64,000 nt of DNA from an uncultured Gammaproteobacteria bacterium. Its GTDB lineage: Bacteria; Patescibacteriota; Microgenomatia; UBA12405. The notes beneath the pieces are model-generated. The model made no database searches. It saw only the letters and a list, made by a program, of their open reading frames with translations, and was not told where the DNA came from. Within the stretch, counting starts at the first letter, position 1; the number at the start of each line of letters is the position of its first letter. Positions 2,709 through 56,548 of the stretch are shown here, piece by piece. The position numbers were made by a program, and so were the translations under genes. The stretch is from contig CAYXDV010000001.1 in assembly GCA_964463925.1 (NCBI GenBank), positions 12,276 to 76,275 of the forward strand. Reading direction: 5' to 3'.

Positions 2709-3296
2709 ATGAAGGTGTATTTTTCTGCATCTAGATTTTACCGTGACAAATATAGAGAAATTTATTTGACGATTGCTGATCAATTAAGAGAGCAAAAATA
2801 CGAGATATTAGATAGGGCGAATATCGACCCGGCGATCGATCCAAAAAAGGTATCAGAGAAAGAAAAAGTACAGTTGCACAAAGACTTTGTAAAAGCTCTC
2901 GATTCTTGTGACTTTTCTGTATTTGAGGCCAGCTATCCTTCAACCATCCACATAGGTCACGAGATTACATTGGCTATTCAAAAAGGCAAACCTGTGATTG
3001 TGTTGTATGGAGATACTGGAGATAAAGAGCCACTGATGTTTAAGGGTCTTGGTGGTGAAAAAGTCATTTGGGTGGAATATGGTGCATTTAACTTGAAGAC
3101 CAAATTGCAGAGAGCAATTGAAAAGGCAAAAAAAATGCAAGATGTAAGATTTAATTTTTTTATCAGCCCGCGCCAACTAGAATACCTTGATTGGTTATCA
3201 AAGAAAAAAATGATACCAAGAGCTGTCTTTTTGAGGGATTTAATTGAAAAAGAAATGAAAAGAGACAAAGACTACACTGAAAGCAAGGCAGATTGA
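2709..3296 (+). CDS. nucleoside 2-deoxyribosyltransferase-like (NDT/DNPH1-like Rossmannoid) domain fused to a C-terminal ribbon-helix-helix DNA-binding domain
   Basis: N-terminus KVYFSASRFY...SCDFSVFEASYPSTIHIGHEITLAIQKGKPVIVLY resembles the NDT/RCL fold motif. C-terminus RFNFFISPRQLEYLDWLSKKKMIPRAVFLRDLIEKE has a CopG/Arc-like beta-alpha-alpha pattern. Confidence 0.5.
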   Translation: MKVYFSASRFYRDKYREIYLTIADQLREQKYEILDRANIDPAIDPKKVSEKEKVQLHKDFVKALDSCDFSVFEASYPSTIHIGHEITLAIQKGKPVIVLYGDTGDKEPLMFKGLGGEKVIWVEYGAFNLKTKLQRAIEKAKKMQDVRFNFFISPRQLEYLDWLSKKKMIPRAVFLRDLIEKEMKRDKDYTESKAD

Positions 3297-4549
3297 GATT
3301 GTTTGATTTTTTGCCAGTGGCTTGACTGTCGACAAAGTAATTTAGAATCTGGTTTGTTGTGGAATAAACCCTTGGTAACTTCTTCTAAGAAAATAGTATT
3401 TTGAGAACCTTTGACCAGAATCACTGATTGCGCAAGATAGTTTGTGTTTTTCAACAAAAAGTCTAGAGCTTGTAAATTTTTATTAAATTTGTGGATTTTA
3501 GGATGAGCGGGGAAGTATTTCTGAGTCTCTGTACCAACTGTTATGATCAGATCGGCGTATTTTAGGGCAATTTTTGCCAATTGTTTGTGTTCTTCTTCGG
3601 ACTGTTGACCCAACTCGCGCATGTCACCCAGAACTGCAATACGTAAATTATTGGTTGACTGTTGGTGTAACAATGACAAAAACTCCAACGTAGGTTGAGG
3701 AGAGGAATTGTAGCTACTATCAATAATTTTGGAATTATAAAGGCCTTTAAAGTAGCTGGCCCTTCCGGGAGGTAAACTGAAATTTTTGGTTAAATTGGTT
3801 AGGATGATTTTGTCGGAAAGTCCAAAATACTTGGCTACAACGTAAGCAGTTCCAAAAGTGATTTCATAGATAGAAGGGAAGATATATTTTTTTTGTAGGG
3901 ATTTGGGGATAAATTTTGGTTGAATAGGAATTACTTGGCAAATTAACTTTGAAGAATAAGATTTAATAAATGGATCAGTTAAATTTAAAAAGGCAGTTTG
4001 TTTGGAAGATAGGGATTTGGCTAGAACTGAATGTTGTTGGCACATTAGCTTTTTGGCGTAATCAATTCGTTTTTGACCTGTTAGATTTGAAGGAATTAAA
4101 GGATCAAAATTTTGAGTATGAACTGTGCCGACATTTAAATGAATAGCCAGGTCCGGTTTAACAATTTTTAAAAGATAAGAAATATTATTTGGTTCAGTGG
4201 GGCCATCTACATCCATTTCAATTAGATAAATATCGGGAACTTGGTTATAAATAAGCAAACGGATTGGGGCCAGAAGAGACAGTTTTAGCCACTCTATGGG
4301 ATGGTAGGAATTTAATTTAAGCCCCAGCAAACTAGCAGGCAGGCCAAACTGGCTGTTGTAGTTTTGATTAGTTTTTACCTTAAAATTGGGTATTAGGGCA
4401 GCTTCAATGGCCTGAATAGCACTAGTTTTACCAGCTGAACCAGTAAGAGCTAGAACTTTAAAACTTTGCTTTTTCAGCTTGGCTAAAAGTCTTAGTTTAG
4501 CTAGTTGTAGCCGGCCCAGAATGCGCCAATAAAGCAGAAATAAGAGCAT
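3272..4549 (-). CDS. murF: Mur ligase family protein (MurF-like UDP-MurNAc-peptide ligase)
   Basis: Mur ligase P-loop VLALTGSAGKTS; three-domain length of 425 aa. Confidence 0.7.
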   Translation of the reverse strand: MLLFLLYWRILGRLQLAKLRLLAKLKKQSFKVLALTGSAGKTSAIQAIEAALIPNFKVKTNQNYNSQFGLPASLLGLKLNSYHPIEWLKLSLLAPIRLLIYNQVPDIYLIEMDVDGPTEPNNISYLLKIVKPDLAIHLNVGTVHTQNFDPLIPSNLTGQKRIDYAKKLMCQQHSVLAKSLSSKQTAFLNLTDPFIKSYSSKLICQVIPIQPKFIPKSLQKKYIFPSIYEITFGTAYVVAKYFGLSDKIILTNLTKNFSLPPGRASYFKGLYNSKIIDSSYNSSPQPTLEFLSLLHQQSTNNLRIAVLGDMRELGQQSEEEHKQLAKIALKYADLIITVGTETQKYFPAHPKIHKFNKNLQALDFLLKNTNYLAQSVILVKGSQNTIFLEEVTKGLFHNKPDSKLLCRQSSHWQKIKQSQSALLSV

Positions 4550-15814: not shown

Positions 15815-18433
15815 CTAAGATTTTTGACGAAGAAAAATGGGGATACTAATAAAAGTTAATGGAATGAAGGCAAGACCAATAAATTCCAGAATTTGTGGCC
15901 AGAAGAAGAAATAAATGGTTGGGCAATTCTGTTGACAATTTTGTAATTCTGAAGGCAACAGCCAGCCATTGGCCCAGTTGTTCACCAATAGGTGATTAGA
16001 TAAGAAAATGGGTTTTTTACCATCAAAATAAAAAGCTAGCCAGGAGGGGGAAAAGGACTGAGGAAGGACTAAAGTATTGTTGCTAGCTGAGTTTTTACTA
16101 AATTTGTAAAAGAAAGTACCTAACTTGTTTGAAGCGTAGTAGGTTCGTTGGGTCTTGGCTAAATTTGGTGGAATGTAAGTTTGGTTGGGGTTTGTGAAAA
16201 GTTTTATATTTTTGATTTGATTGGTGGTAGTTTTGCCATCGAAACTGGGACTATTAAAAAGAATAGTAAGTCCTGTATAGAAATCTTCGCTTTCTATAGC
16301 TGGAATATTTATTGAATATGGTGTCCATTGTTTTAGATTTGGTAGCTTTATATTGAAGAATTTGTACTTTTTATTATTATCAAAGGCTGAGATGGTCAGA
16401 GGGTGTCCTGATAAGTTAGACGCATAAAAATTTAGAGTTAGTTCTTGGGTAAAGTTAGCAGAAGGGTAGTAGAAGCCTTTTAGATTGTTAGTGGCAATTG
16501 ATTTTAGTTCAAAAAAATCAGGTTTTTCTGTTGGGAACAATTCTTCTAGCTGATAATTGGGGGATTGTATAAAAGCTTCCCTATCAGAAAATTGATTAAT
16601 ATTTGGAGAATTTGTATTTGGATAAACCGAGTAATCACCCGAATTTTCAAAGGTAAAATCCCTGTTATTAAATAATTGCTGGGCGGATATTTGGGTATTG
16701 GTAGAAAAAATCTGGTTGTTGCTATTTGTTTTGTACAAGAAAATTTGGTTATTGAAGTTTTTTTCTAGAGTCAGAAAAGGGCTGTTTTCTAGTAATTGGT
16801 TAATGTAATATTTTTGTTTACTATAGATTGGCTCATCTGGATAAAAAACATTTTTATCATATAGAATATAGTCTATGTTATATTTTTGGACTATGTTTTG
16901 TAGCAAAACTGGACTATTTGTCTCAATGGCATATTTTAATTGCCAATAGTATGATTCGTTGTAAAGATTCCAAACGTCGAAAGCTCTATCTAAAATAGAT
17001 TGGCTCAGCCCGTACCAAAGGAAACCAGAGCCGCGCATTCCAAAGTCATATCTTGTCCAGCCGTAAAAAGATCCCTGTGGAAGGTTGGCTATTCTCAGAT
17101 CTGGTTTTTGGTTAAGATAGGTAATAACTTTGAAGTAGGTGTCGGGGATTTTTATTTTTAGATTGGGATAAAAAAAATTTCCTTTAAAAATTGGCTGGTT
17201 TAATAAAAGATTAAGTGTTAAAAAAAGAAAAGAAATAGTAGCAAGAACGGAGCCTGAAATTTTTTTCCAGTTGTAGAAACTTAACAAGAAATGTCCAATT
17301 AAGAGGGAGTAGATTAGGCTAAGCAAGGGGGCAAATTTGGTGAAAGGCGAACGAAAGACCTGATCAATTAGGCCTGATTGCCTCAGAAATTGGTTTATTT
17401 GAGAGAAAACTGGTATTTGGCTGCCGAGGGCTATGCAAAGTAAAAGGCTAGATAAAATTGTGAAAGTTTGTAAACTATTTTTAATTTTAGGCAGTGTCAC
17501 TAAGACTAGGCCCAAGAATGCACAGAAACTAAAAAAATATTGCAGGAGATTCATGCTGGGTGAGTTCAGAAAAGAGATCCAAGGTGACATAATGTTTCCT
17601 TCTACGTCCGTCAAATTAAAGTAATATCCCTTAAGCGACAATAAATCCCAAAAATGCCCAAAATAGTCATTACGCATGGCGGTTTCTTGATTAGCCATAA
17701 GATTGCCCATAGCAAACCTGGGGTTGTAAGATTGGGTCGAAAAGAAATATAAAAAAGGTAATAACCAAAATAGATTAAGAAAGAGAATTATCCCTAATTG
17801 TTTAAGGGTAGTTGAGGCTTTTTTATAAGTTGACAAAATAAGGCAACCCAAAATAGATAAATAAACCAGGAAAACTGTGGGGACATAGAAGCTAGGAATG
17901 GCCAAAAGATTGACAATAGTTAGTTTAAAAAAGTTTTTAAGAGTAGGCTGATTAGCGCTTTGAAGGAAGTATAGTACCAACCACGGCAGAGTGCCCCAAA
18001 AAATTGAAAAAGGTTCAAAAGGGGCCCAAAAATTTTGGACGGTGGCAAAATTTAGGAGATAAAAGCTGGCAACTAAGACTGATGGTAGATTTTTGTGCGA
18101 ATACTGTTTGAATAAAAAATATATACCATAGGTTCCTAGAAAAAGACTAAAAAAATGCCAAAAATAACGTATCTGGTTAGCGGGCAATATTAGATTTAAC
18201 AGTAAAGTTAAGAGCTGTCTTATCAGATCAGTTGCATGACCCATCCCGCCGACTAATCCTAGTCCTTGGTATTCCTGCCACACAGCCGAAAGACTCCTGG
18301 CTAAATTTAATTTTAGGTTTAGTTCTGGCATTAAATTGTCCCAGCCAGATAGCCAAGTTCCGTTTGTAAAATTAGCCAAAAATACTGCCAATAATAATAG
18401 AAACAGAAAGATAGGTGCAAACCATTTAGACAT
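15815..18433 (-). CDS. large polytopic membrane protein, possible GT-C-type (YfhO/ArnT-like) glycosyltransferase
   Basis: 872 aa with about 15 predicted TM helices in the N-terminal two thirds and a C-terminal extracytoplasmic domain. It overlaps the upstream GT2 gene by 8 nt, which suggests an operon. Confidence 0.45.
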   Translation of the reverse strand: MSKWFAPIFLFLLLLAVFLANFTNGTWLSGWDNLMPELNLKLNLARSLSAVWQEYQGLGLVGGMGHATDLIRQLLTLLLNLILPANQIRYFWHFFSLFLGTYGIYFLFKQYSHKNLPSVLVASFYLLNFATVQNFWAPFEPFSIFWGTLPWLVLYFLQSANQPTLKNFFKLTIVNLLAIPSFYVPTVFLVYLSILGCLILSTYKKASTTLKQLGIILFLNLFWLLPFLYFFSTQSYNPRFAMGNLMANQETAMRNDYFGHFWDLLSLKGYYFNLTDVEGNIMSPWISFLNSPSMNLLQYFFSFCAFLGLVLVTLPKIKNSLQTFTILSSLLLCIALGSQIPVFSQINQFLRQSGLIDQVFRSPFTKFAPLLSLIYSLLIGHFLLSFYNWKKISGSVLATISFLFLTLNLLLNQPIFKGNFFYPNLKIKIPDTYFKVITYLNQKPDLRIANLPQGSFYGWTRYDFGMRGSGFLWYGLSQSILDRAFDVWNLYNESYYWQLKYAIETNSPVLLQNIVQKYNIDYILYDKNVFYPDEPIYSKQKYYINQLLENSPFLTLEKNFNNQIFLYKTNSNNQIFSTNTQISAQQLFNNRDFTFENSGDYSVYPNTNSPNINQFSDREAFIQSPNYQLEELFPTEKPDFFELKSIATNNLKGFYYPSANFTQELTLNFYASNLSGHPLTISAFDNNKKYKFFNIKLPNLKQWTPYSINIPAIESEDFYTGLTILFNSPSFDGKTTTNQIKNIKLFTNPNQTYIPPNLAKTQRTYYASNKLGTFFYKFSKNSASNNTLVLPQSFSPSWLAFYFDGKKPIFLSNHLLVNNWANGWLLPSELQNCQQNCPTIYFFFWPQILEFIGLAFIPLTFISIPIFLRQKS

Positions 18434-19292
18434 TGATTGATTCTAGCGCAAAAGAGCTTGTTTTTTTCAAATTTCTTATACTGTACCAAAGGTTACTAAT
18501 CATAGCTTCTGGAAGAAAAGTAACTACTATAATTTGCAAAAGGTTTAGAAAGATCGCAGTTGGCGAAGGTTTTGAACCCAATTGCAGTGCATTTAGTCTG
18601 CTTTGAAAGGTTAGCCAAAAGGTTTTTTTGGGATGGGAATGGGAAAGGCTGGTGGGTAAAATTCGATAAAATAGAAGTGTTTGATTGAGATTAGAAAGAT
18701 TTCCTAAGCGCGATAAACGGAAAAGAAGATCAACTTCTTCAGCTGAGGATCTATTGGGTTGGTACCAAAGAAATTTTTTTGGCAAAAGGAGTGTGTTTAT
18801 CATCATACTGGGTTGCTGAATTGGGATGGCCCAAAAAAGCATCTTGGCCAGTTTTACAGGATTACTCGGAAAGTTTTTTTGGCCAATTAGCTTATTATTT
18901 TGGTCGATTAACTGGCATTGGCCACCAAGGGCAATTGTCTGGGGATTTGTTTTAAAGTATGCCAGTTGAAGTTGAAGACGTGTAGGGATAGAAATATCGT
19001 CGGCGTCCATACGCGCAATGAATTTGCCACGGCATTTGGATAAGGCGATATTGGAAGTTAGGCTTACGCCAAGATTTATTGGATTACGAAAAGCCTTGAT
19101 ACGTTTGTCTTTCTTAGCATACTTTTGAATTATGGTCCAAGAATGATCAGTGGAATGATCATCTACGATGATGAATTCAAAATTACTATAAGTTTGGAAT
19201 AAAATAGATTCAATTGACTGAGTTAGAAACTCGGCGGCGTTGAAGACTGGCATATAGACTGAAAGAATTGGTTTTTTGTCCGAATATTTCAT
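18426..19292 (-). CDS. family 2 glycosyltransferase
   Basis: LSVYMPVFNAAEFLTQSIESILFQTYSNFEFIIVDDHSTD...ARMDADDIS is a GT2 DxD architecture. Confidence 0.8.
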   Translation of the reverse strand: MKYSDKKPILSVYMPVFNAAEFLTQSIESILFQTYSNFEFIIVDDHSTDHSWTIIQKYAKKDKRIKAFRNPINLGVSLTSNIALSKCRGKFIARMDADDISIPTRLQLQLAYFKTNPQTIALGGQCQLIDQNNKLIGQKNFPSNPVKLAKMLFWAIPIQQPSMMINTLLLPKKFLWYQPNRSSAEEVDLLFRLSRLGNLSNLNQTLLFYRILPTSLSHSHPKKTFWLTFQSRLNALQLGSKPSPTAIFLNLLQIIVVTFLPEAMISNLWYSIRNLKKTSSFALESINV

Positions 19293-19395
19293 ATCTTGAT
19301 TTATCGTTTTCGGCTTCTTTTTGCCTCATCAGTACGAGAATTGGTTTACTCGTAAAACGATATTCCACACACAACAAAGAAAGGAAATCACCAGA

Positions 19396-19445
19396 AGACA
19401 CGCAGAGAGGCAAGCCAGGAAGGCTTGGGGGTCCTCTCTGCGTGT
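19396..19445. repeat. long perfect hairpin (14-bp stem, nested inner stem) just downstream of the lipoprotein gene
   Basis: GACACGCAGAGAGG-CAAGCC-AGGAA-GGCTTG-GGGGT-CCTCTCTGCGTGTC. It lies in a local GC-rich segment. Confidence 0.5.
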
Positions 19446-19465
19446 CAAGCGGTGGTCATGTGACA

Positions 19466-20251
19466 CTACTTGCAGGACTTGGCCGCCCGTTGCTCTTCGA
19501 GCCAAGGCGCAACGACGCCGGTTGTGACTTTGCCATCAGAAGGTGCGTTCTTTAGCATGCAGCTGGAAAATTTAGTGCCATCCGACAAAACAATGCCGAC
19601 GCCGATGACAGTGTCACCTTTCTTGAAGTTCAAAGTCTTGCCGTCGCCTGTAGCTTGGCGTTCTGAATTGACTTGCGCGGCAGGCTTGGCAGGTGATGTG
19701 GCTGTAGGCTGTTCGGCTTGCTGGGTTGAACCGGTTGGTGGATACAAGTGAGCATGTGCCCAACTGTATTTAACAGCTTCACCAACCCTAAAGTCGTATT
19801 CGTCCTTCAGCCATTCGCTCTTAACCACACTAACGAAACCGTCCTTCACTGTGACACTGAAGTCGCTTGTGTATGTCTTATAGACACCGCCTGCAACGTT
19901 ATCCACTGTGAAGCCGCCAACAACCGCAGCGGTTCCGGGGATCAACTTGATCCTCCAGGTCTTCTGTGGTGCGTCGGTTCCACTTTCCGGATCCCATTTA
20001 CCCGTTTCCAGGTACATGGAAGGATGTGCCACGTATGGTTGCGGCTGCAGGTCATACAGTTGCCCGTTTTCGGCACGGGTGGCGGCGGGGATAGGCGCTG
20101 GTGCGGCGGTTGTCGTAGTCGTGATGACGCTGGTCGCTGAGGCGGCCGGCGTGTCGCTACGAGTTGCGGTGGCGCCAGAAGCGCCGCCGCAACCGGCTAG
20201 GAGCAGTATTGCTCCGGCCGCCATCACAGATAGAAATATTTTGTTTTTCAT
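19466..20251 (-). CDS. lipoprotein of unknown function, compositionally foreign (high GC)
   Basis: Signal peptide with lipobox (...ILLLAGCGG); Thr/Ala-rich linker; GC about 55-60% against a 38-40% background. RBS aaggag sits 8 nt upstream of the ATG. Confidence 0.7.
   Translation of the reverse strand: MKNKIFLSVMAAGAILLLAGCGGASGATATRSDTPAASATSVITTTTTAAPAPIPAATRAENGQLYDLQPQPYVAHPSMYLETGKWDPESGTDAPQKTWRIKLIPGTAAVVGGFTVDNVAGGVYKTYTSDFSVTVKDGFVSVVKSEWLKDEYDFRVGEAVKYSWAHAHLYPPTGSTQQAEQPTATSPAKPAAQVNSERQATGDGKTLNFKKGDTVIGVGIVLSDGTKFSSCMLKNAPSDGKVTTGVVAPWLEEQRAAKSCK
20221..20251. repeat. left copy of a 31-bp imperfect inverted repeat (covers the first 10 codons of the lipoprotein gene)
   Basis: The reverse complement ATGAAAAACAAAATATTTCTATCTGTGATGG matches AAGAAAAACAAAATATTTCTGTCAGTGATGG at 21011-21041 at 27 of 31 positions, in the same codon phase. 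Confidence 0.55.
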
Positions 20252-20285
20252 TTTTTCTCCTTTTTTTGTTTTTTGTTTTGATTTT

Positions 20286-20339
20286 GGTATTAGAACCCAG
20301 CTATCCCCATACTAATGGGAAGAATTGGGTTCTAATACC
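20286..20339. promoter_or_regulatory. 14-bp perfect inverted repeat (GGTATTAGAACCCA/TGGGTTCTAATACC) upstream of the lipoprotein gene
   Basis: Spacer of 26 nt. Further palindromes lie nearby: TAACACgcaatGTGTTA about 20406-20422, GTGGCAAtTTGCCAC 20443-20457 and ATCTGTaaaaACAGAT about 20518-20533. Confidence 0.4.
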
Positions 20340-20659
20340 TCAAAAACTTAGAAAAGAAGAATTATTGTTGTGTGTGGAATGTAAAGGAACTTCTGGGTCA
20401 CTTGGTTAACACGCAATGTGTTAGAAAGTAAAAACCAGAGGAGTGGCAATTTGCCACCCAAAAACTAACTTAAATTAGCTTTTGGCTGACAAAATGTTTT
20501 TTACTTAAAGGTGCGAATCTGTAAAAACAGATTATGGGTAAGTATAGCAATTAAAGCCTAAATTGTCAAGTTATAGGACTTAAGAAATTTATATGTAGGT
20601 AGCTTGGGTAAAATTTAATGTCGTGAAAAACATGATTCGTTTGGTTCAATTAGAAACTC

Positions 20660-21091
20660 TTGTTGATATACTCAATTATGGCTAAGGACTTTAAGGTTAA
20701 AAGGCGAGTATGGTTGACATATGATTTATGGAGGAAAGATGGGATTTATTGCCCTGCATTGAAATCTAGAGTAAGAGTATCGTTACTTGGCTGGAGACAT
20801 ATTACTGGAGCTACTGGCCACAAAAAACGTTCTTTTGGAGATGTATACAGACGTTTAAAACTATTGCCCTATGCAAAAGAGATTTTAGAAGAGTCGACCA
20901 ACATACAAGATATAAGTATCAGAAATAGTCGTACTTTTTATGCATTTGAGGCTATGAAATTAATTGGTAGTGTATGGATTAAAGTACGAGTTGTATTGAT
21001 CGAAGATGCTAAGAAAAACAAAATATTTCTGTCAGTGATGGATCGGAAAAAGAAAAACGGAGCACCTCACGCTTCGGTTGTTAAACGTTAG
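20660..21091 (+). CDS. hypothetical protein; its C-terminal 10 codons (KNKIFLSVMD) duplicate the lipoprotein signal-peptide start
   Basis: 143-aa ORF with a basic N-terminal half and no recognised family. The 3' end contains the right copy of the inverted repeat (21011-21041). Confidence 0.45.
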   Translation: MLIYSIMAKDFKVKRRVWLTYDLWRKDGIYCPALKSRVRVSLLGWRHITGATGHKKRSFGDVYRRLKLLPYAKEILEESTNIQDISIRNSRTFYAFEAMKLIGSVWIKVRVVLIEDAKKNKIFLSVMDRKKKNGAPHASVVKR

Positions 21092-21496
21092 CGTCATGGA
21101 GTGTAAAAACACTCTTGCTCCGATGCGTTATCCTAGCAAATAAAGTAGATATGGTCAAGTAAAATATCTTATTTGACAAATAACGGAAAATAGGGTTTGA
21201 TTAAGTGATGTTGGGAATTACGTCAAATTCTCAGCTAAGATTCCGGTAGGGACCGGGATGACATACAAACTGACCTGCGCGAGAAAGTAGTGATCCGATG
21301 CGCAAGGATCAATCTGAAGGCAACGAAAGTATATGACGCGACCTTCAGCTCCTTACAGGTTGGCCCACATATAAGTTGTAATTTAAGATTACTTGTAGTA
21401 ATTTTTTAAATTACAATAGTTCTTTTTGAAAATAAAATAGACTACGAACCTCGGGGTGCGATCCACTTTCGGGGTAGGAAAAACTCTATTTTGTTT

Positions 21497-48837: not shown

Positions 48838-48875
48838 AAAGAAGGGAGGAGAGTGATCTCCCCCCTTCTTTTGTT
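48838..48875 (+). terminator. hairpin plus T-run (plus orientation) at the convergent gene junction
   Basis: GAAGGGAGGAgagtgatcTCCCCCCTTC followed by TTTTGTT. Confidence 0.4.
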
Positions 48876-51042
48876 AATTGGATTTGGGTTTGCCCCAGCG
48901 TTCTTGGGATACACGAACTAAGCGTTCCCGACCTTGATTTTTGCATTCTAGAGGTGGAAGGGTAGTAGCGTAGAAGGGTTCTTGAGTTTGAGAATCAATG
49001 GAAAGCTTGGCTAGAATTTGATATTTACCAATTTTAACTAGGTCTTCGGCTGGGAAGTTGGGACCAAATTCGCGGGTAAGAATGGCGGCATCCTGGGAGC
49101 CTACAACGTAGGAAAGCAGTGTACCAACATTTCCTAAAATGGCATCTTGAATGGTTCGATCCAGCTGGGACATGTACTGGTTAGCAACAATTAGATTTAG
49201 CCTAAATTTACGGGCTTCGGAAAGAATTTTGATAAAGGCTTCGGTAGCAAAGTTTTGAAACTCATCGACATACAAATAAAAATCTTTACGTTCATCTGTA
49301 GCTAAATGAACCCGATTCATGGCAGAAAGTTGGATTTGGGTGATGAGCATGGCACCCAAAAGGGCACTATTGTCTTCGCCTAGCCGCCCTGTAGATAAAT
49401 CGGCAATCAGGATTTTGCCTTCATTCATTATCTGTTCAACGTTGACCTTGCTTTTGGCCTGAGAAACGGTGTTGCGAATATTACTACTAGATAGGAATTG
49501 ACCGACTTTGTTGAGAATTGGAGAAATGGCCTCAATTTGCAATTTTTGGTCCATTTTTTCAAATTCATACTGCCAAAAGTTTAAAAGAGTTGGCGGAATA
49601 CCTGGGGTGGCAAGTAACTTTTTGCGATAGGCAGAATTGGTAAGCAAATCAATAATATTTCCAAGGTGAGTATTGGGTGCATAAACCAGAGTCAAAATAG
49701 TATTGCGTAGAATATGTTCAAGCCTGGGTCCCCAGGAGGTATTTCCGTATAATTTTTTAAAAATTGAAACTACCCCCGAGGCTACTAATTCCCGTTGAGA
49801 ATCTGAATAGATTTCTAGGACATTTAGGGGATATATATAATCTGGGTCGGCTGGATTAAAATAGCAGGTATCGTTGACCCGGGAGCTGGGGATGTAATCT
49901 AGGATAGTTTGGGATAAATCGCCGTGGGGGTCGATAATGGCTACGCCTTTGCCCTTGCGGATATCGTCTACCGCCATGTTGGCAATGAGGGTGGTTTTTC
50001 CGGTTCCCGATTTACCAATGATATAAGTGTGTCGGCGCCGGTCTTCGCCATCTCGAATGCCAAAAATGGTTTCTTTGTTCCTGAATTCAGTTTTGGCAAA
50101 ATAGGTGGTTTGGTTTTTTTCTTCGGTGGTGGCGTTGGTGGCTACTGGTAAATTCTCGGGAGGATCGGCATAAAGAGTTTTTCCCCAAGCGATATTAGGT
50201 AGTTTTGTTAGCTTGGTTGGCGGATGCCACAAGAGGGCTAACTCTTCGCTATTAAGGATTTGTTTTTTTAAACGGCGACGAAGCTGGCGATTTTTTAAAC
50301 TGGAAATTAGGGTGGGTTTGACTAGGGGATTTGGGAGGCTTGACAAGAGCAGGTTGCCCCTAGGGTTGCTATAAATTCCAAAGGAAGAAGTAACGGCGGT
50401 TAGCAAAACGGGATTGGTAGAGGCCAAATTAATCTGGCAAACCAGACCTGGAAACTGGATTTTTTGTTCAAAAATCTGCCGATCAGGATGCGGTTGCCGT
50501 AGATTTTTGGTAGCATCTATTACAATTCCGTTTTGGATTAAAGAAAAAGTGTGATTTTGCCAGGAAGAAGAAGCTGGAGAAAGTAATATTTGGTAAAGGA
50601 AAAAATCCTGATTTTGACTGCTGCGCGAGAGGGGGGCCAAAACAGAAGTAAGCGGATCGACTTCCCGAAATTCTTTGGCGGATTTGAGCGGATAGGAGGC
50701 ATTTTTACTAAAAGCCATTTGGGCAAGGGACAATTTGGAAAAGTCCAAAGAATTCAAATAATCTTCTTTTGGTTCTAAAAAAAGGGCAGTGGGAAACTGG
50801 CCTAAAAACTGAGATTTTATATATTCAGATAGGTTAGGAGGAGCTAAAATATAAAAATGGATTTGCCCCTGGGATAGGACAATTTCTAAGGAAGTGAGTA
50901 AATGGTGGTGCTTAAAAATTTTTTCAGAAAAAGTTTTTTTGAGGCTGTGGGTTAGGGTAGCAAAAAAGGAGTTGGCCGATTCTATAGTATATTCATTATT
51001 TTGGGGCAAACGGACTTCGTAGCAAATTAGGGCAGAAGACAT
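48874..51042 (-). CDS. FtsK/HerA/TraD-superfamily P-loop ATPase (VirB4/T4CP-like; AAA-like DUF87 type)
   Basis: Walker A IIGKSGTGKTTL near the middle; Walker B-like FYLYVDEFQNFATE; then ...RKFRLNLIVANQYMSQL. No TM segments. About a 320-aa N-terminal domain of unknown function. Confidence 0.6.
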   Translation of the reverse strand: MSSALICYEVRLPQNNEYTIESANSFFATLTHSLKKTFSEKIFKHHHLLTSLEIVLSQGQIHFYILAPPNLSEYIKSQFLGQFPTALFLEPKEDYLNSLDFSKLSLAQMAFSKNASYPLKSAKEFREVDPLTSVLAPLSRSSQNQDFFLYQILLSPASSSWQNHTFSLIQNGIVIDATKNLRQPHPDRQIFEQKIQFPGLVCQINLASTNPVLLTAVTSSFGIYSNPRGNLLLSSLPNPLVKPTLISSLKNRQLRRRLKKQILNSEELALLWHPPTKLTKLPNIAWGKTLYADPPENLPVATNATTEEKNQTTYFAKTEFRNKETIFGIRDGEDRRRHTYIIGKSGTGKTTLIANMAVDDIRKGKGVAIIDPHGDLSQTILDYIPSSRVNDTCYFNPADPDYIYPLNVLEIYSDSQRELVASGVVSIFKKLYGNTSWGPRLEHILRNTILTLVYAPNTHLGNIIDLLTNSAYRKKLLATPGIPPTLLNFWQYEFEKMDQKLQIEAISPILNKVGQFLSSSNIRNTVSQAKSKVNVEQIMNEGKILIADLSTGRLGEDNSALLGAMLITQIQLSAMNRVHLATDERKDFYLYVDEFQNFATEAFIKILSEARKFRLNLIVANQYMSQLDRTIQDAILGNVGTLLSYVVGSQDAAILTREFGPNFPAEDLVKIGKYQILAKLSIDSQTQEPFYATTLPPLECKNQGRERLVRVSQERWGKPKSN

Positions 51043-53673: not shown

Positions 53674-53904
53674 TTATTGGTCGTCCCGTTTCCGGAACGG
53701 CCACATTCCGTCTGGCCAGGTCCTTCTAAAGGATCCTACTAGACCTACGAGGAAAAAAATGACAAGTAGAATGCCAAGGGCCTTATTTACAAAGACCCAT
53801 GGGTCTATGGAATCAAAGATCATCTGGGATGTCAGACATCCTAACCCCTCGAGAAGGATTAGGATATACAGACACCCTTTGTCGCTTTGCTTTCCCCCCT
53901 TCAT
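53674..53904 (-). CDS. small membrane protein (2 TM)
   Basis: 76 aa. Its start overlaps the upstream gene's stop by 4 nt. GC-rich codon usage. Confidence 0.5.
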   Translation of the reverse strand: MKGGKQSDKGCLYILILLEGLGCLTSQMIFDSIDPWVFVNKALGILLVIFFLVGLVGSFRRTWPDGMWPFRKRDDQ

Positions 53905-54218
53905 TTCTTGCCCCCGGCATCAAGCCTCTGGGTTTCCGCCTCAGCGACGGCATTTATGCCGTCGGTGTCCAGACTTTTGACCATTAGTGCTCCAACCCCG
54001 CTGCCTCGGCTCTCCGCCGAGCTTTTCCCCACCTTGGCTTTGAAGGCCGTATGGGAATTGACGAGCACAAATGCGGCGCCGATTAGCCCGAAAATTATCG
54101 TGGCTATCACTAGACTCCCAATTACTGCTTGGGCGATGGGGTCTAGCTGAGGAAATACCAGACCTAATGTAATGACGATTACCATTATGGCAATCGTTTT
54201 AGCAGTGTTGCTGTTCAT
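53901..54218 (-). CDS. small membrane protein (2-3 TM)
   Basis: Begins MNSNTAKTIAIMVIVITLGLVF.... The ATG overlaps the upstream TGA (ATGA). The ORF-track N-terminal extension to 54542 is the Arg-rich antisense of the neighbouring gene and is rejected. Confidence 0.55.
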   Translation of the reverse strand: MNSNTAKTIAIMVIVITLGLVFPQLDPIAQAVIGSLVIATIIFGLIGAAFVLVNSHTAFKAKVGKSSAESRGSGVGALMVKSLDTDGINAVAEAETQRLDAGGKK

Positions 54219-54742
54219 TGTTTTGCTCCTTTTTTCAATTCTTTTTTGGTGTCCGGCCTTGGCCGGACACCTTTGCCCTTGGTTTCCACGCTGGTCTCGC
54301 CAATCTGCACTCGCGAGTATGAGCTGCTCTTGGAGAGCACCCATACCATTAGAGTCAGGACAAATAAGAACCCCTCGCCGGCGAAGATCGCCAGGCAGAG
54401 AGGCTCTTTGGTCAGTAGGTAGGCGACGAGCAGTAGTGCGTTGAAACCGAAGAATCCCATTCCCAGGATTCCGACCCAGGAATGGGAGGTGGCGTGCTGG
54501 ACTGTGCTTCCAGCACCCACCTGTCCGGTGCAGGTGGGGCAAATTCTTTTTCGCGGGAAGAACCTTTCATCGTCTACCCACGGATCGGGTACACTATATG
54601 TATGGCGACATTTTTCACATGTCGCCATTACAGTTTTGTTTTGGTATTTGCGCCTCAATGCCGACTTTCGATTCCCGTCTATCACCCAGACGAAGAATGC
54701 TACGGCAAGGAAAGTGCCCACAGACCCGACAATGTCATTCAT
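54215..54742 (-). CDS. membrane protein with a cytoplasmic zinc-ribbon (CxxC-x23-CxxC)
   Basis: N-terminal TM, then ATCEKCRHTYSVPDPW...RICPTCTG, then 2-3 more TM helices and a Lys-rich tail. Confidence 0.6.
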   Translation of the reverse strand: MNDIVGSVGTFLAVAFFVWVIDGNRKSALRRKYQNKTVMATCEKCRHTYSVPDPWVDDERFFPRKRICPTCTGQVGAGSTVQHATSHSWVGILGMGFFGFNALLLVAYLLTKEPLCLAIFAGEGFLFVLTLMVWVLSKSSSYSRVQIGETSVETKGKGVRPRPDTKKELKKGAKQ

Positions 54743-55080
54743 TGGGTGCCTCCTGTGAAGAAAGTTTGGAAAAACGGTAGCCAGAACAGACTTATGTCTG
54801 CCATGGTGCTTAGGGATGTTTTTCCACTTCTAAATAGTGTGGATAGTATGGTGTCAGCTATTGTTAGTGCAATAGTTGCTATCCAGAAAAAGAAAACATA
54901 GTTACCATATCCACTTATTTGGATTGTTGGCATAAACGGTATGATGTTTCCCTTGTTTTCCATTCTCCACCAAAGCGATAGAAGAATCCAAACAATCATA
55001 CCTATCCTATAAGCCCAGACTGACCTCCAATCTTTAGGATTGTTTTTTGGGGTTATGTCTCTATCCATGTTTCCTCTCAC
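54739..55080 (-). CDS. small membrane protein (3 TM)
   Basis: 113 aa. It overlaps the upstream SPFH gene's 3' end by 20 nt and the downstream gene by 4 nt. Confidence 0.5.
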   Translation of the reverse strand: MRGNMDRDITPKNNPKDWRSVWAYRIGMIVWILLSLWWRMENKGNIIPFMPTIQISGYGNYVFFFWIATIALTIADTILSTLFRSGKTSLSTMADISLFWLPFFQTFFTGGTQ

Positions 55081-55864
55081 TTATTAGTTCATCAATTACG
55101 TGCTGTTCTAATGCCCTTCTTGTGATTTGTTGTCCACCTTCACCGATAAAGGTTACAATTGGTTGTCTTTTGCCTCTGCGTTGTGCCATTTGCGATCTGA
55201 CCGCCAAATCCACCCACCTTATGACGTGGTCTGAATTTCCACCCATCTTACTAAAAGTATCGCCAAGAGCTTTAGCCCTGAAAGCTTCTTGCCCTGCTAG
55301 TGTTCTGGCTGCAAGTTCATCTTTTAGTTCATCTTCGGGCTCTATGTCCGTTAGTTGAATTGCTTCCATTTGCACACCTATAGAGGACGTCTTGTTCGCG
55401 AATGGTTTTAGGTCTGTGGGCGTGATATTTACTCCTTGACCTTCAAGGAAGTCTTTTTCTGCTATTAGAGATCTGACTACATCTCTAGGAGCTTTAGTTA
55501 TTCCAGAGAATAGAGTTTCGTCTTCGACAAGGGCGTATCTCCACTCGTACCTTGGATCGTCTGGAACTGTATAAAATGCAATTCCTGCTACTTTAACGGT
55601 GAAGCCATCTTTGGTTACAGCATTTCCCTTGAATTCTGCATCGAATGCGACTACTGGCACTTGACGTTTTCCTCCAGGTTTTTCAAGAAGAGGAATAAAG
55701 AAATGCACTCCCCCAGGGCCAACCATACGATTTGGGGTCCCTAGTCTTAGGATTGCTATTCTAGTGTCTGGAGGTGCCATTATCCAGACTAACCCATTTC
55801 CCAAAAATAGCACCAGCAGTCCAAATACCACTAGCACTATTGGAAAAAGAATTTCACTGTTCAT
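55061..55864 (-). CDS. SPFH/band-7 (stomatin/prohibitin-like) membrane protein, second copy in the window
   Basis: N-terminal TM then ...VPVVAFDAEFKGNAVTKDGFTVKVAGIAFYTVPDDP... SPFH core and a coiled C-terminus. GC about 52%. Confidence 0.75.
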   Translation of the reverse strand: MNSEILFPIVLVVFGLLVLFLGNGLVWIMAPPDTRIAILRLGTPNRMVGPGGVHFFIPLLEKPGGKRQVPVVAFDAEFKGNAVTKDGFTVKVAGIAFYTVPDDPRYEWRYALVEDETLFSGITKAPRDVVRSLIAEKDFLEGQGVNITPTDLKPFANKTSSIGVQMEAIQLTDIEPEDELKDELAARTLAGQEAFRAKALGDTFSKMGGNSDHVIRWVDLAVRSQMAQRRGKRQPIVTFIGEGGQQITRRALEQHVIDELISERKHG

Positions 55865-55879
55865 GTTGTTTCTCCTGTT

Positions 55880-56548
55880 TTAGAAATGTCGTGGTGGGAG
55901 TTTCCCGTCACTCTTCTTTTGTGGATTTTTGATTGTGGCAACAGGTTTGTTGTTAACCAAAGGCAGGTGTTGGGCCATTTTTGCCTTTAATAAACTTGTC
56001 GCCAGTTCCCTGGTATCACTGTCCACACCCTCTTCAGCCAGCTCGGTAAGTGCCTCAATTAGCTCGGGTGTTAGCCTGAGCTCTTGATCGTCGCCACCAA
56101 CCCCTTCGAGCTCTGTGACGACCCTTACCGCCGGATTTTTTGCTGCCCTTTTTTGTTGGGGCTGGACTGGTTCATCAGTAGCGGGAGCATCCTCTTCTTT
56201 CGACCCTTCTGGCTTCCTGAAAAAGCTCAGAATCACCAAACCCACAATTAGCACTCCGGCCACGCCTGCCCCAACAATTGGGTTTTCGGTGGCAGAGTAT
56301 GCGGCCAACCCGGCCGCCAAGGCGAGCACCATCTTGTTAAGGATGGTGTTTTTAAAAAGCAAGTAGATGGCCTGAAAGAGACCACCACTTACTAACGAGA
56401 AGCTCATTTGTGCTTCTGGAAAAATCCTAAAAGTTTCATTTAGCGTTGGAAACGCTACGAATCCAATTAGGCTTCCCACGAGCCATGGACCAATGATTTT
56501 GAATAGCCATTTTGGGACTCCGTCCCTGATGGCCTGACGGGTATTCAT
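55880..56548 (-). CDS. membrane protein (4 TM) with an acidic C-terminal domain
   Basis: First gene of the minus-strand operon; 222 aa; no OB/NfeD-like signature seen. Confidence 0.5.
   Translation of the reverse strand: MNTRQAIRDGVPKWLFKIIGPWLVGSLIGFVAFPTLNETFRIFPEAQMSFSLVSGGLFQAIYLLFKNTILNKMVLALAAGLAAYSATENPIVGAGVAGVLIVGLVILSFFRKPEGSKEEDAPATDEPVQPQQKRAAKNPAVRVVTELEGVGGDDQELRLTPELIEALTELAEEGVDSDTRELATSLLKAKMAQHLPLVNNKPVATIKNPQKKSDGKLPPRHF

Follow-up and report, generated by a model that had tools for sequence, protein, structure and literature searches.

In a 64,000-nucleotide stretch of the genome of an uncultured bacterium deposited as Gammaproteobacteria and placed by GTDB in the Patescibacteriota (Microgenomatia; UBA12405), we analysed a 31-nt inverted repeat shared by two opposed genes, one for a 261-aa lipoprotein and one for a 137-aa LPD3-like protein. 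The stretch (GenBank assembly GCA_964463925.1, contig CAYXDV010000001.1, positions 12,276 to 76,275 of the forward strand) is referred to below as the window and is numbered from its first letter. The repeat is real and not a product of chance, the copying ran from the tail of the LPD3-like gene to the start of the lipoprotein gene, and the lipoprotein copy ends at the junction of a mosaic gene. The repeat is probably a lineage-specific inverted micro-duplication, a scar left when the lipoprotein gene took its start from the tail of its neighbour, and not a recombination switch.

The left arm (20221-20251, minus strand; ATGAAAAACAAAATATTTCTATCTGTGATGG) is AT-rich and comprises codons 1-10 of the lipoprotein gene (19466-20251, minus strand) plus one nucleotide, and the right arm (21011-21041, plus strand; AAGAAAAACAAAATATTTCTGTCAGTGATGG) covers K112 to M121 of the LPD3-like gene (20678-21091, plus strand), also with one additional nucleotide. 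Each arm opens on the first position of a codon. In the left arm this codon is the ATG that begins the 261-aa open reading frame (ORF); in the right arm it is an AAG, codon 112 when the 137-aa gene is read from its ATG, or codon 118 of a 143-aa ORF that begins at an alternative TTG at 20660. The two arms encode MKNKIFLSVM (left) and KKNKIFLSVM (right). A preliminary description of this DNA had reported a codon-phase-preserving inverted repeat common to two opposed genes, which is borne out by reading of the sequence and by pattern search, but its count of 27 identical positions out of 31 needs correction to 28 (three mismatches, not four). It had also named a single ATG-to-AAG difference at the start codon; the position is right, but this is one of three differences, the other two (CTA/CTG and TCT/TCA) being synonymous. 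A repeat finder reported the arms as 29 nt at 93% identity, and the longest perfect run that they share is 18 bp. With its arms, the bracketed segment measures 821 bp (759 nt between the 31-nt arms) and, as previously described, holds a palindrome (20286-20339, minus strand) whose arms are 25 nt long.

No match to the repeat was obtained in 100 dinucleotide-preserving shuffles. It tops all repeats of either orientation in the window, a pair of tRNA-Thr genes excepted, and is present there in exactly two copies when up to three mismatches are allowed. At the protein level, residues 2-10 of the two peptides match at 9/9 positions, compared with a best value of 6/9 for the other N-termini among the window's 69.

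The right arm is the original, because it lies on a motif that is family-wide and structurally constrained. We identified 74 homologues of the LPD3-like protein (~127-154 aa) in Microgenomates-type genomes of the candidate phyla radiation (CPR), where they occur in varied genomic contexts; homologues with a name belong to Roizmanbacteria and Shapirobacteria. Across an alignment of 32 family members, NKIF[LY]SVMDKK is the best-conserved C-terminal block, with S119, M121 and D122 invariant and F117, V120, K123 and K124 nearly so. Residues 115-122 (KIFLSVMD) form the last strand of a sheet in a confident AlphaFold model (predicted local distance difference test, pLDDT, 87).

The left arm is the copy, because no relative of the lipoprotein starts in this way and because both the switch in GC (guanine plus cytosine) content and the similarity to the lipoprotein family begin at the arm's end. 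GC content rises from ~35% to 52-65% at 20220/20221, the exact end of the arm, which makes up the AT-rich first 31 nt of an otherwise GC-rich gene (body, 50-65% GC; window average, 39%). The family alignment with the window lipoprotein begins at A11 (AAGAILL), directly after the arm, and the family core reads PQPQIGHPSxYLETG...QAVQYxWAH. None of ~20 other family members starts with MKNKIFLSVM; their N-termini are MRKYLF..., MKTLLIAAGAIL..., MSKWII..., MNRTHL... and so on, and in the other GC-rich homologues the high GC content already spans the start codon and the sequence before it. The arm supplies the beginning of a predicted lipoprotein signal peptide, MKNKIFLSVMAAGAILLLAGCGG, recognized by eye from a positive N-terminus, a hydrophobic core and a lipobox (LLAGC, with LAGC at residues 18-21) that conforms to [LVI][ASTVI][GAS]C. 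An AAGGAG Shine-Dalgarno sequence precedes the start codon. No ribosome-binding site precedes the internal M10, and a start there would leave no lysines and a very short hydrophobic core.

The sequence suggests a scenario in which local AT-rich DNA, including 31 nt copied in inverted orientation from the tail of the LPD3-like gene, provided the lipoprotein gene with a new 5' end. A change of AAG to ATG in the copied piece would have created the start codon, and the copy would have given two lysines and six hydrophobic residues before AAGAILLLAGC (MKNK-IFLSVM-AAGAILLLAGC). Template switching or illegitimate recombination during replacement of the gene's 5' end may have been responsible, and the copy may have been retained since it restores protein export. 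The preliminary description had offered a relic of a duplication or insertion event as an alternative, which fits well with a right arm on a conserved motif and a left arm that is unique and lies at an AT/GC junction. A similarly sharp compositional junction, which here falls inside the signal peptide, is a feature of mosaic or chimeric genes that acquired a local 5' end following horizontal transfer or illegitimate recombination. As in such genes, the body is kin to GC-rich homologues, the start and leader are local and AT-rich, and the arrangement is lineage-specific; a difference is that the source of the recruited start is identifiable here as a 31-nt stretch of the neighbouring gene, copied in inverted orientation.

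The copied piece is sharply delimited: outside the 31 nt, neither flank resembles the LPD3-like gene in DNA or protein sequence. Searches upstream of the lipoprotein start for a decayed second LPD3-like copy, using tblastn with the 32 members and blastn-short, recovered only low-complexity lysine codons past the 31 nt, and a decayed gene copy is without direct support because nothing extends further. The LPD3-like gene is single-copy in the window, which also contains only one member of the lipoprotein family. Elsewhere, LPD3-like and lipoprotein-family genes were never adjacent in the loci examined, three other LPD3-like loci had no inverted copy of the tail, and no other locus of either gene family carried such a repeat, making the arrangement unique to this genome among those examined. 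An assembly chimera was considered for the GC-rich island that forms the lipoprotein body and was rejected, as both flanks are of CPR type and the same order, island and then a GT2 glycosyltransferase gene, is seen in 11 other loci; an exact k-mer join is impossible because the arms differ at three positions. Taken alone, the repeat is a piece of small genome archaeology, a traceable case of 31 bases from a neighbouring gene providing a start codon and an export signal to a gene whose own 5' end had become unusable or had never been usable.

Several points weigh against a copied start. The mechanism that it calls for (a clean, in-frame, inverted 31-nt copy from 760 nt away) is unobserved and not textbook. 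Both differences outside the start codon are synonymous, which fits conservation of the peptide but equally fits DNA acting as a site. Two contigs from other samples (L003 and L004) both end at 20214, 7 nt outside the left arm, which hints at a variable junction. Finally, the recombinase screen reported below spans 64 kb of the genome, and orientation was judged on assembled contigs.

The contig ends also enter into an alternative that we consider unlikely, in which the AT-rich start is a fixed 5' anchor at a recurrent exchange point where GC-rich lipoprotein bodies are swapped (antigenic or cassette replacement), and the likeness to the LPD3-like tail is merely a historical by-product. The two contigs (from JGI 3300045350 and SRR23702460) start at the AT/GC junction, have their right ends at 21356 and 21233, respectively, and are ~99.7% identical to the window over the adjoining 1.1 kb. 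In line with exchange, proteins with 90% or more identity to the lipoprotein were confined to one sample, and across Patescibacteria the island boundaries enclose a variable 1.0 to 3.2 kb between conserved flanking genes. However, low coverage or poor sequencing of GC-rich DNA explains the contig ends equally well, and we saw no other body attached to this start. When metagenome and genome collections were scanned with the repeat core (GAAAAACAAAATATTTCTNTCNGTGATGG) for alternative junctions or the inverted orientation, there were zero matches, these collections evidently being without samples that carry this strain.

The preliminary description had favoured a shufflon-like invertible segment, a proposal left unsupported by two copies only, no recombinase in 64 kb, a single orientation among four assemblies and broken products. 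In an active switch, 20252-21010 would be flipped by rare homologous recombination or by a site-specific recombinase whose gene lies outside the window, and the lipoprotein would be switched off because its signal peptide would end up inside a fusion with the LPD3-like protein; we regard this as quite improbable. The repeat is inverted and in frame and brackets a divergent promoter region, and the length and imperfection of its arms lie within the range of published inverton surveys. Against a switch, the longest perfect stretch is 18 bp, and the ORFs of at least 100 aa in the window contain no Phage_integrase, Resolvase or transposase domain, according to domain searches and precomputed Pfam assignments (a few ORFs, for Suf, tRNA-synthetase-like and radical SAM proteins, were judged by translation alone). 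These 64 kb, which are as far as the search reached, yielded no tyrosine or serine invertase, for which the earlier description had suggested looking nearby. Its other suggestion, a comparison of orientation across assemblies, showed the same orientation in all four assemblies (the window and contigs L001/L002, L003 and L004, the contigs being from three samples); L003 and L004 cross both arms unbroken.

The predicted products of inversion also speak against a switch. The in-frame fusion had been correctly worked out (...LIEDA + KNKIFLSVM + AAGAILLLAGC...), but the first product would join the first 121 LPD3-like residues to the lipoprotein body, with the invariant D122-K-K replaced, and the second would be a separate 26-aa peptide; neither looks functional. 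In the inverted state, the left junction is predicted to read ...GCTCCGGCCG + CCATCAC[A/T]GA[T/C]AGAAATATTTTGTTTTTCTT + AGCATCTTCGATCAATACAAC... and the right junction ...AAAGGAGAAAAAATGAAAAACAAAATATTTCT[A/G]TC[T/A]GTGATGG + ATCGGAAAAAGAAAAACGG..., and the arrangement that such a switch would depend on was, as noted above, confined to this genome among the loci examined.

Known inversion systems resemble the present repeat in part. The R64 shufflon has an adjacent gene for the Rci tyrosine recombinase, many sfx repeats and alternative functional C-terminal segments of pilV. As in R64, the inverted repeats here lie within coding sequence at a fixed codon phase and inversion would yield an in-frame fusion, but only two repeats are present, the 64 kb yielded no recombinase and the fusion products seem non-functional. 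In the vsa, vsp and vpma systems of Mycoplasma, families of silent lipoprotein genes each have a recombination site before the gene and are served by a dedicated recombinase. The likeness is in a repeat at the very start of a surface-lipoprotein gene, where recombination would change the expressed body; the difference is that there is a single lipoprotein gene here, with the second repeat copy in an unrelated gene. Invertons, such as fimS, hin and those of the gut microbiome, share the short imperfect inverted repeat around a promoter-bearing segment of ~0.8 kb; unlike in these, no invertase was found, the assemblies agree in orientation and protein conservation accounts for one arm. The repeat should not be counted as a CPR phase-variation system unless read-level evidence appears.

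A function at the RNA level, in which the arms pair in read-through transcripts and mask either the region around the lipoprotein start or the end of the LPD3-like mRNA, is very improbable. The arms would make a 29-bp helix with 93% complementarity, a weak minus-strand promoter-like site is present at 21158-21130, and in the cassette described below another inverted repeat, beside a hammerhead, seems to engage in long-range pairing. However, the two normal mRNAs carry the same sense of the repeat and are therefore not mutually complementary. The strong promoter-like site facing the lipoprotein gene (20541-20569, minus strand; TTGACA-17-TATACT with a TG extension, an 11/12 match) lies between the arms, and the transcript therefore holds one arm only; the arrangement also shows no conservation in other loci. 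Least probable of all, and very unlikely, is chance convergence of a typical AT-rich signal-peptide start on the LPD3-like motif: signal peptides in AT-rich genomes often start with MK(N/K)K followed by hydrophobic residues, and a low-GC homologue in locus L023 starts with MKKFLTVM (ATGAAAAAATTTCTAACTGTCATG) behind a similar Shine-Dalgarno sequence, but this has to be set against zero matches in 100 shuffles, a 9/9 peptide match where the other 68 N-termini reach 6/9, the proximity of the two sequences (within 800 bp) and a change in composition exactly at the arm's end.

While the repeat itself is of modest interest, the cassette in which its left arm sits is more important and deserves a separate look. 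The family, made up of secreted proteins or lipoproteins, is rare, with 12 clusters among 5.8 billion proteins plus loci from pattern scans, and all of its members are in Patescibacteria-type contigs, one of them binned as Gammaproteobacteria. Islands with a family member were found in L016, L020-L022 and L024-L031 (window: 19380-20220), and 12 of the 13 related loci profiled had a GC-rich island (52-67% GC, versus 31-46% in the flanks). A GT2 gene lies directly downstream of the island wherever sequence is available there, including in the window (18426-19292, minus strand), and the gene order lipoprotein, GT2 and large membrane protein is kept in related loci. Locus L023 has the window's GT2 gene and 872/875-aa membrane-protein pair together with low-GC versions of the lipoprotein gene. 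We found no homologues from recognizably high-GC organisms.

Between the lipoprotein gene and the GT2 gene, with the latter immediately downstream, is a candidate type III hammerhead ribozyme (19302-19362, minus strand; Rfam RF00008 alignment). It has every core position (CUGAUGA...GAAA), an allowed NUH cleavage triplet and an open stem III, with stems III, I and II of 7, 6 and only 3 bp, respectively, and cleavage is predicted to separate 19355 from 19354 (minus strand). The score of 28.9 bits (E = 1.5e-4 in 200 nt) is below the RF00008 gathering score of 48.5, as are those of hammerheads at the same position in related loci (26.5-34.9 bits): L020:2408-2462 (34.9 bits), L030:3460-3514 (31.5), L025:1869-1919 (26.5) and L029:~3119-3196. 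All three stems covary among the window, L020/L025/L030 and L029 types, as determined by an explicit stem parse; automatic alignment with consensus folding did not align the five hammerheads correctly. The related hammerheads lie before the GT2 gene, or before a small ORF and the GT2 gene. The group resembles the type III hammerhead of RF00008 in its CUGAUGA and GAAA cores, its permitted cleavage triplet and the covariation of its three stems from locus to locus, and departs from it in scoring 26-35 bits versus 48.5 and in having the arm of a long-range repeat always directly before it. In a literature search, we found nothing linking hammerhead ribozymes with these bacteria and no description of such an arm-plus-hammerhead arrangement. 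In loci of the L020 type (L020:2456-2470, L025 and L030), the 3' strand of stem III (GAAAGGAC) holds a Shine-Dalgarno-like AAGGA for a small ORF 3-6 nt downstream; because AAGGA is within the stem III strand, translation of the small ORF could be controlled by cleavage or unfolding of the ribozyme.

The arm before the window's hammerhead belongs to a perfect 16-nt inverted repeat (ATTCCACACACAACAA / TTGTTGTGTGTGGAAT). In the minus-strand transcript, its 3' arm (19362-19377) abuts hammerhead stem III and its 5' arm (20365-20380) lies in the lipoprotein 5' leader, the two arms enclosing the entire lipoprotein cassette (1019 bp). Similarly, an arm of a perfect inverted repeat stands directly before each hammerhead, with its partner 1.0-3.2 kb upstream at the island's other edge (L020:775-789/2395-2409; L030:952-966/3447-3461; L029:455-465/3109-3119; L031:2946-2956/6156-6166). 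For L025, only the hammerhead-side arm is on the contig, and in L031 the hammerhead is decayed. These boundary repeats are perfect over 11-16 nt; the sequence in L020, L029, L030 and L031, (GAC)AAGGTATACAG(A), differs from that in the window, while the position is the same, and in the non-window loci the 5' arm overlaps a TTGACA hexamer. Islands without a hammerhead have no such boundary repeat. We considered whether the 16-nt repeat might be a transposon terminal repeat, which is unlikely given that the arm sequence varies at a constant position and that no transposase or target-site duplication is visible.

Both 16-nt arms would be in the lipoprotein transcript, because the promoter-like site at 20569-20541 is upstream of the 5' arm. 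From their placement, we infer that the arms would pair in RNA beside stem III and that the ribozyme would separate the cassette mRNA from the GT2 mRNA. A joint reading of the locus, which we put forward as possible but doubtful, is a GC-rich cassette for a surface protein that can be replaced, lying directly upstream of an operon for protein glycosylation and bounded by the long-range inverted repeat and the hammerhead, with the 31-nt repeat as a side effect. The arms would form a panhandle in the transcript that stacks on hammerhead stem III, and through this pairing the forming of a 3' end on the cassette mRNA would be linked to the freeing of the glycosyltransferase mRNA downstream. Cassette bodies would be exchanged at these same boundaries, and the borrowed start at 20221-20251 would mark the 5' splice point of one exchange. 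If functional, this architecture would give a bacterial hammerhead ribozyme a concrete, testable role and would point to a way of renewing surface proteins in these episymbiotic bacteria.

Other features of the two genes are of a more local nature. From the promoter-like site at 20569-20541, the lipoprotein gene has a 5' leader of ~280 nt, which contains a terminator-like hairpin (20441-20459, minus strand) and the 25-nt-arm palindrome, ending 35 nt upstream of the start codon; this long leader with its hairpins may be regulatory. A GC-rich perfect 14-bp hairpin (19397-19446, minus strand) lies just 3' of the lipoprotein stop codon. Neither PHROGs nor PADLOC gave a match for the lipoprotein, the LPD3-like protein or two downstream ORFs, and a scan of viral contigs found no relatives of the lipoprotein or the LPD3-like protein.

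The window LPD3-like protein has no match to Pfam LPD3 (PF18798) even at E values up to 10. Its relation to that family is seen through homologues: one that is 57% identical (P0013) scores 32.4 bits against a cut-off of 27, another (P0049) scores 25.7, and a precomputed PF18798 match exists for 4 of the 74. Fold searches with the model gave weak results, the best being the CdiA-CT toxin complex 6cp9 (E ~9e-3; template-modelling (TM) score, 0.4-0.5); given such scores, we did not accept this match as a fold assignment and take an RNase-toxin-like fold as a hint only. Many LPD3-like homologues are on very short contigs. In L015 (4001-4405), the gene lies in the opposite orientation between rpsJ (S10) and rplC (L3) of a ribosomal-protein operon, and because contexts such as this one are unrelated between genomes, the LPD3-like gene seems to move around.

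Overlapping the LPD3-like stop codon is a structured RNA-like motif of ~61 nt (21060-21120, plus strand), with an outer stem and two hairpins, that has no match in Rfam. It is common to L005 (~4412-4470), L010 (~4393-4452) and L015 (~4412-4475), and six compensatory (covarying) pairs are found among the four sequences. At LPD3-like genes, the motif overlaps the stop codon or comes after it and is recorded as always present. The unrelated contexts and many short contigs noted above suggest that this small gene and the RNA motif at its 3' end are mobile as a pair. The ORF of several homologues runs into the motif (C-terminal ...SGTPHA). A second candidate structured RNA at 21195-21400 was dropped, with a folding z-score of only -1.4 and no conservation in other loci.

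Farther along the window, a 722-aa gene (48874-51042, minus strand) resembles a type IV secretion coupling protein (DUF87 / TrwB_AAD_bind), and several ORFs with a GC content of 50-55% and no family match lie downstream of it (53700-56400). We considered this 53.7-56.4 kb region as a similar cassette and set it aside, since it contains no hammerhead and no other Rfam match. A similar coupling-protein gene is found near the lipoprotein island in L031.

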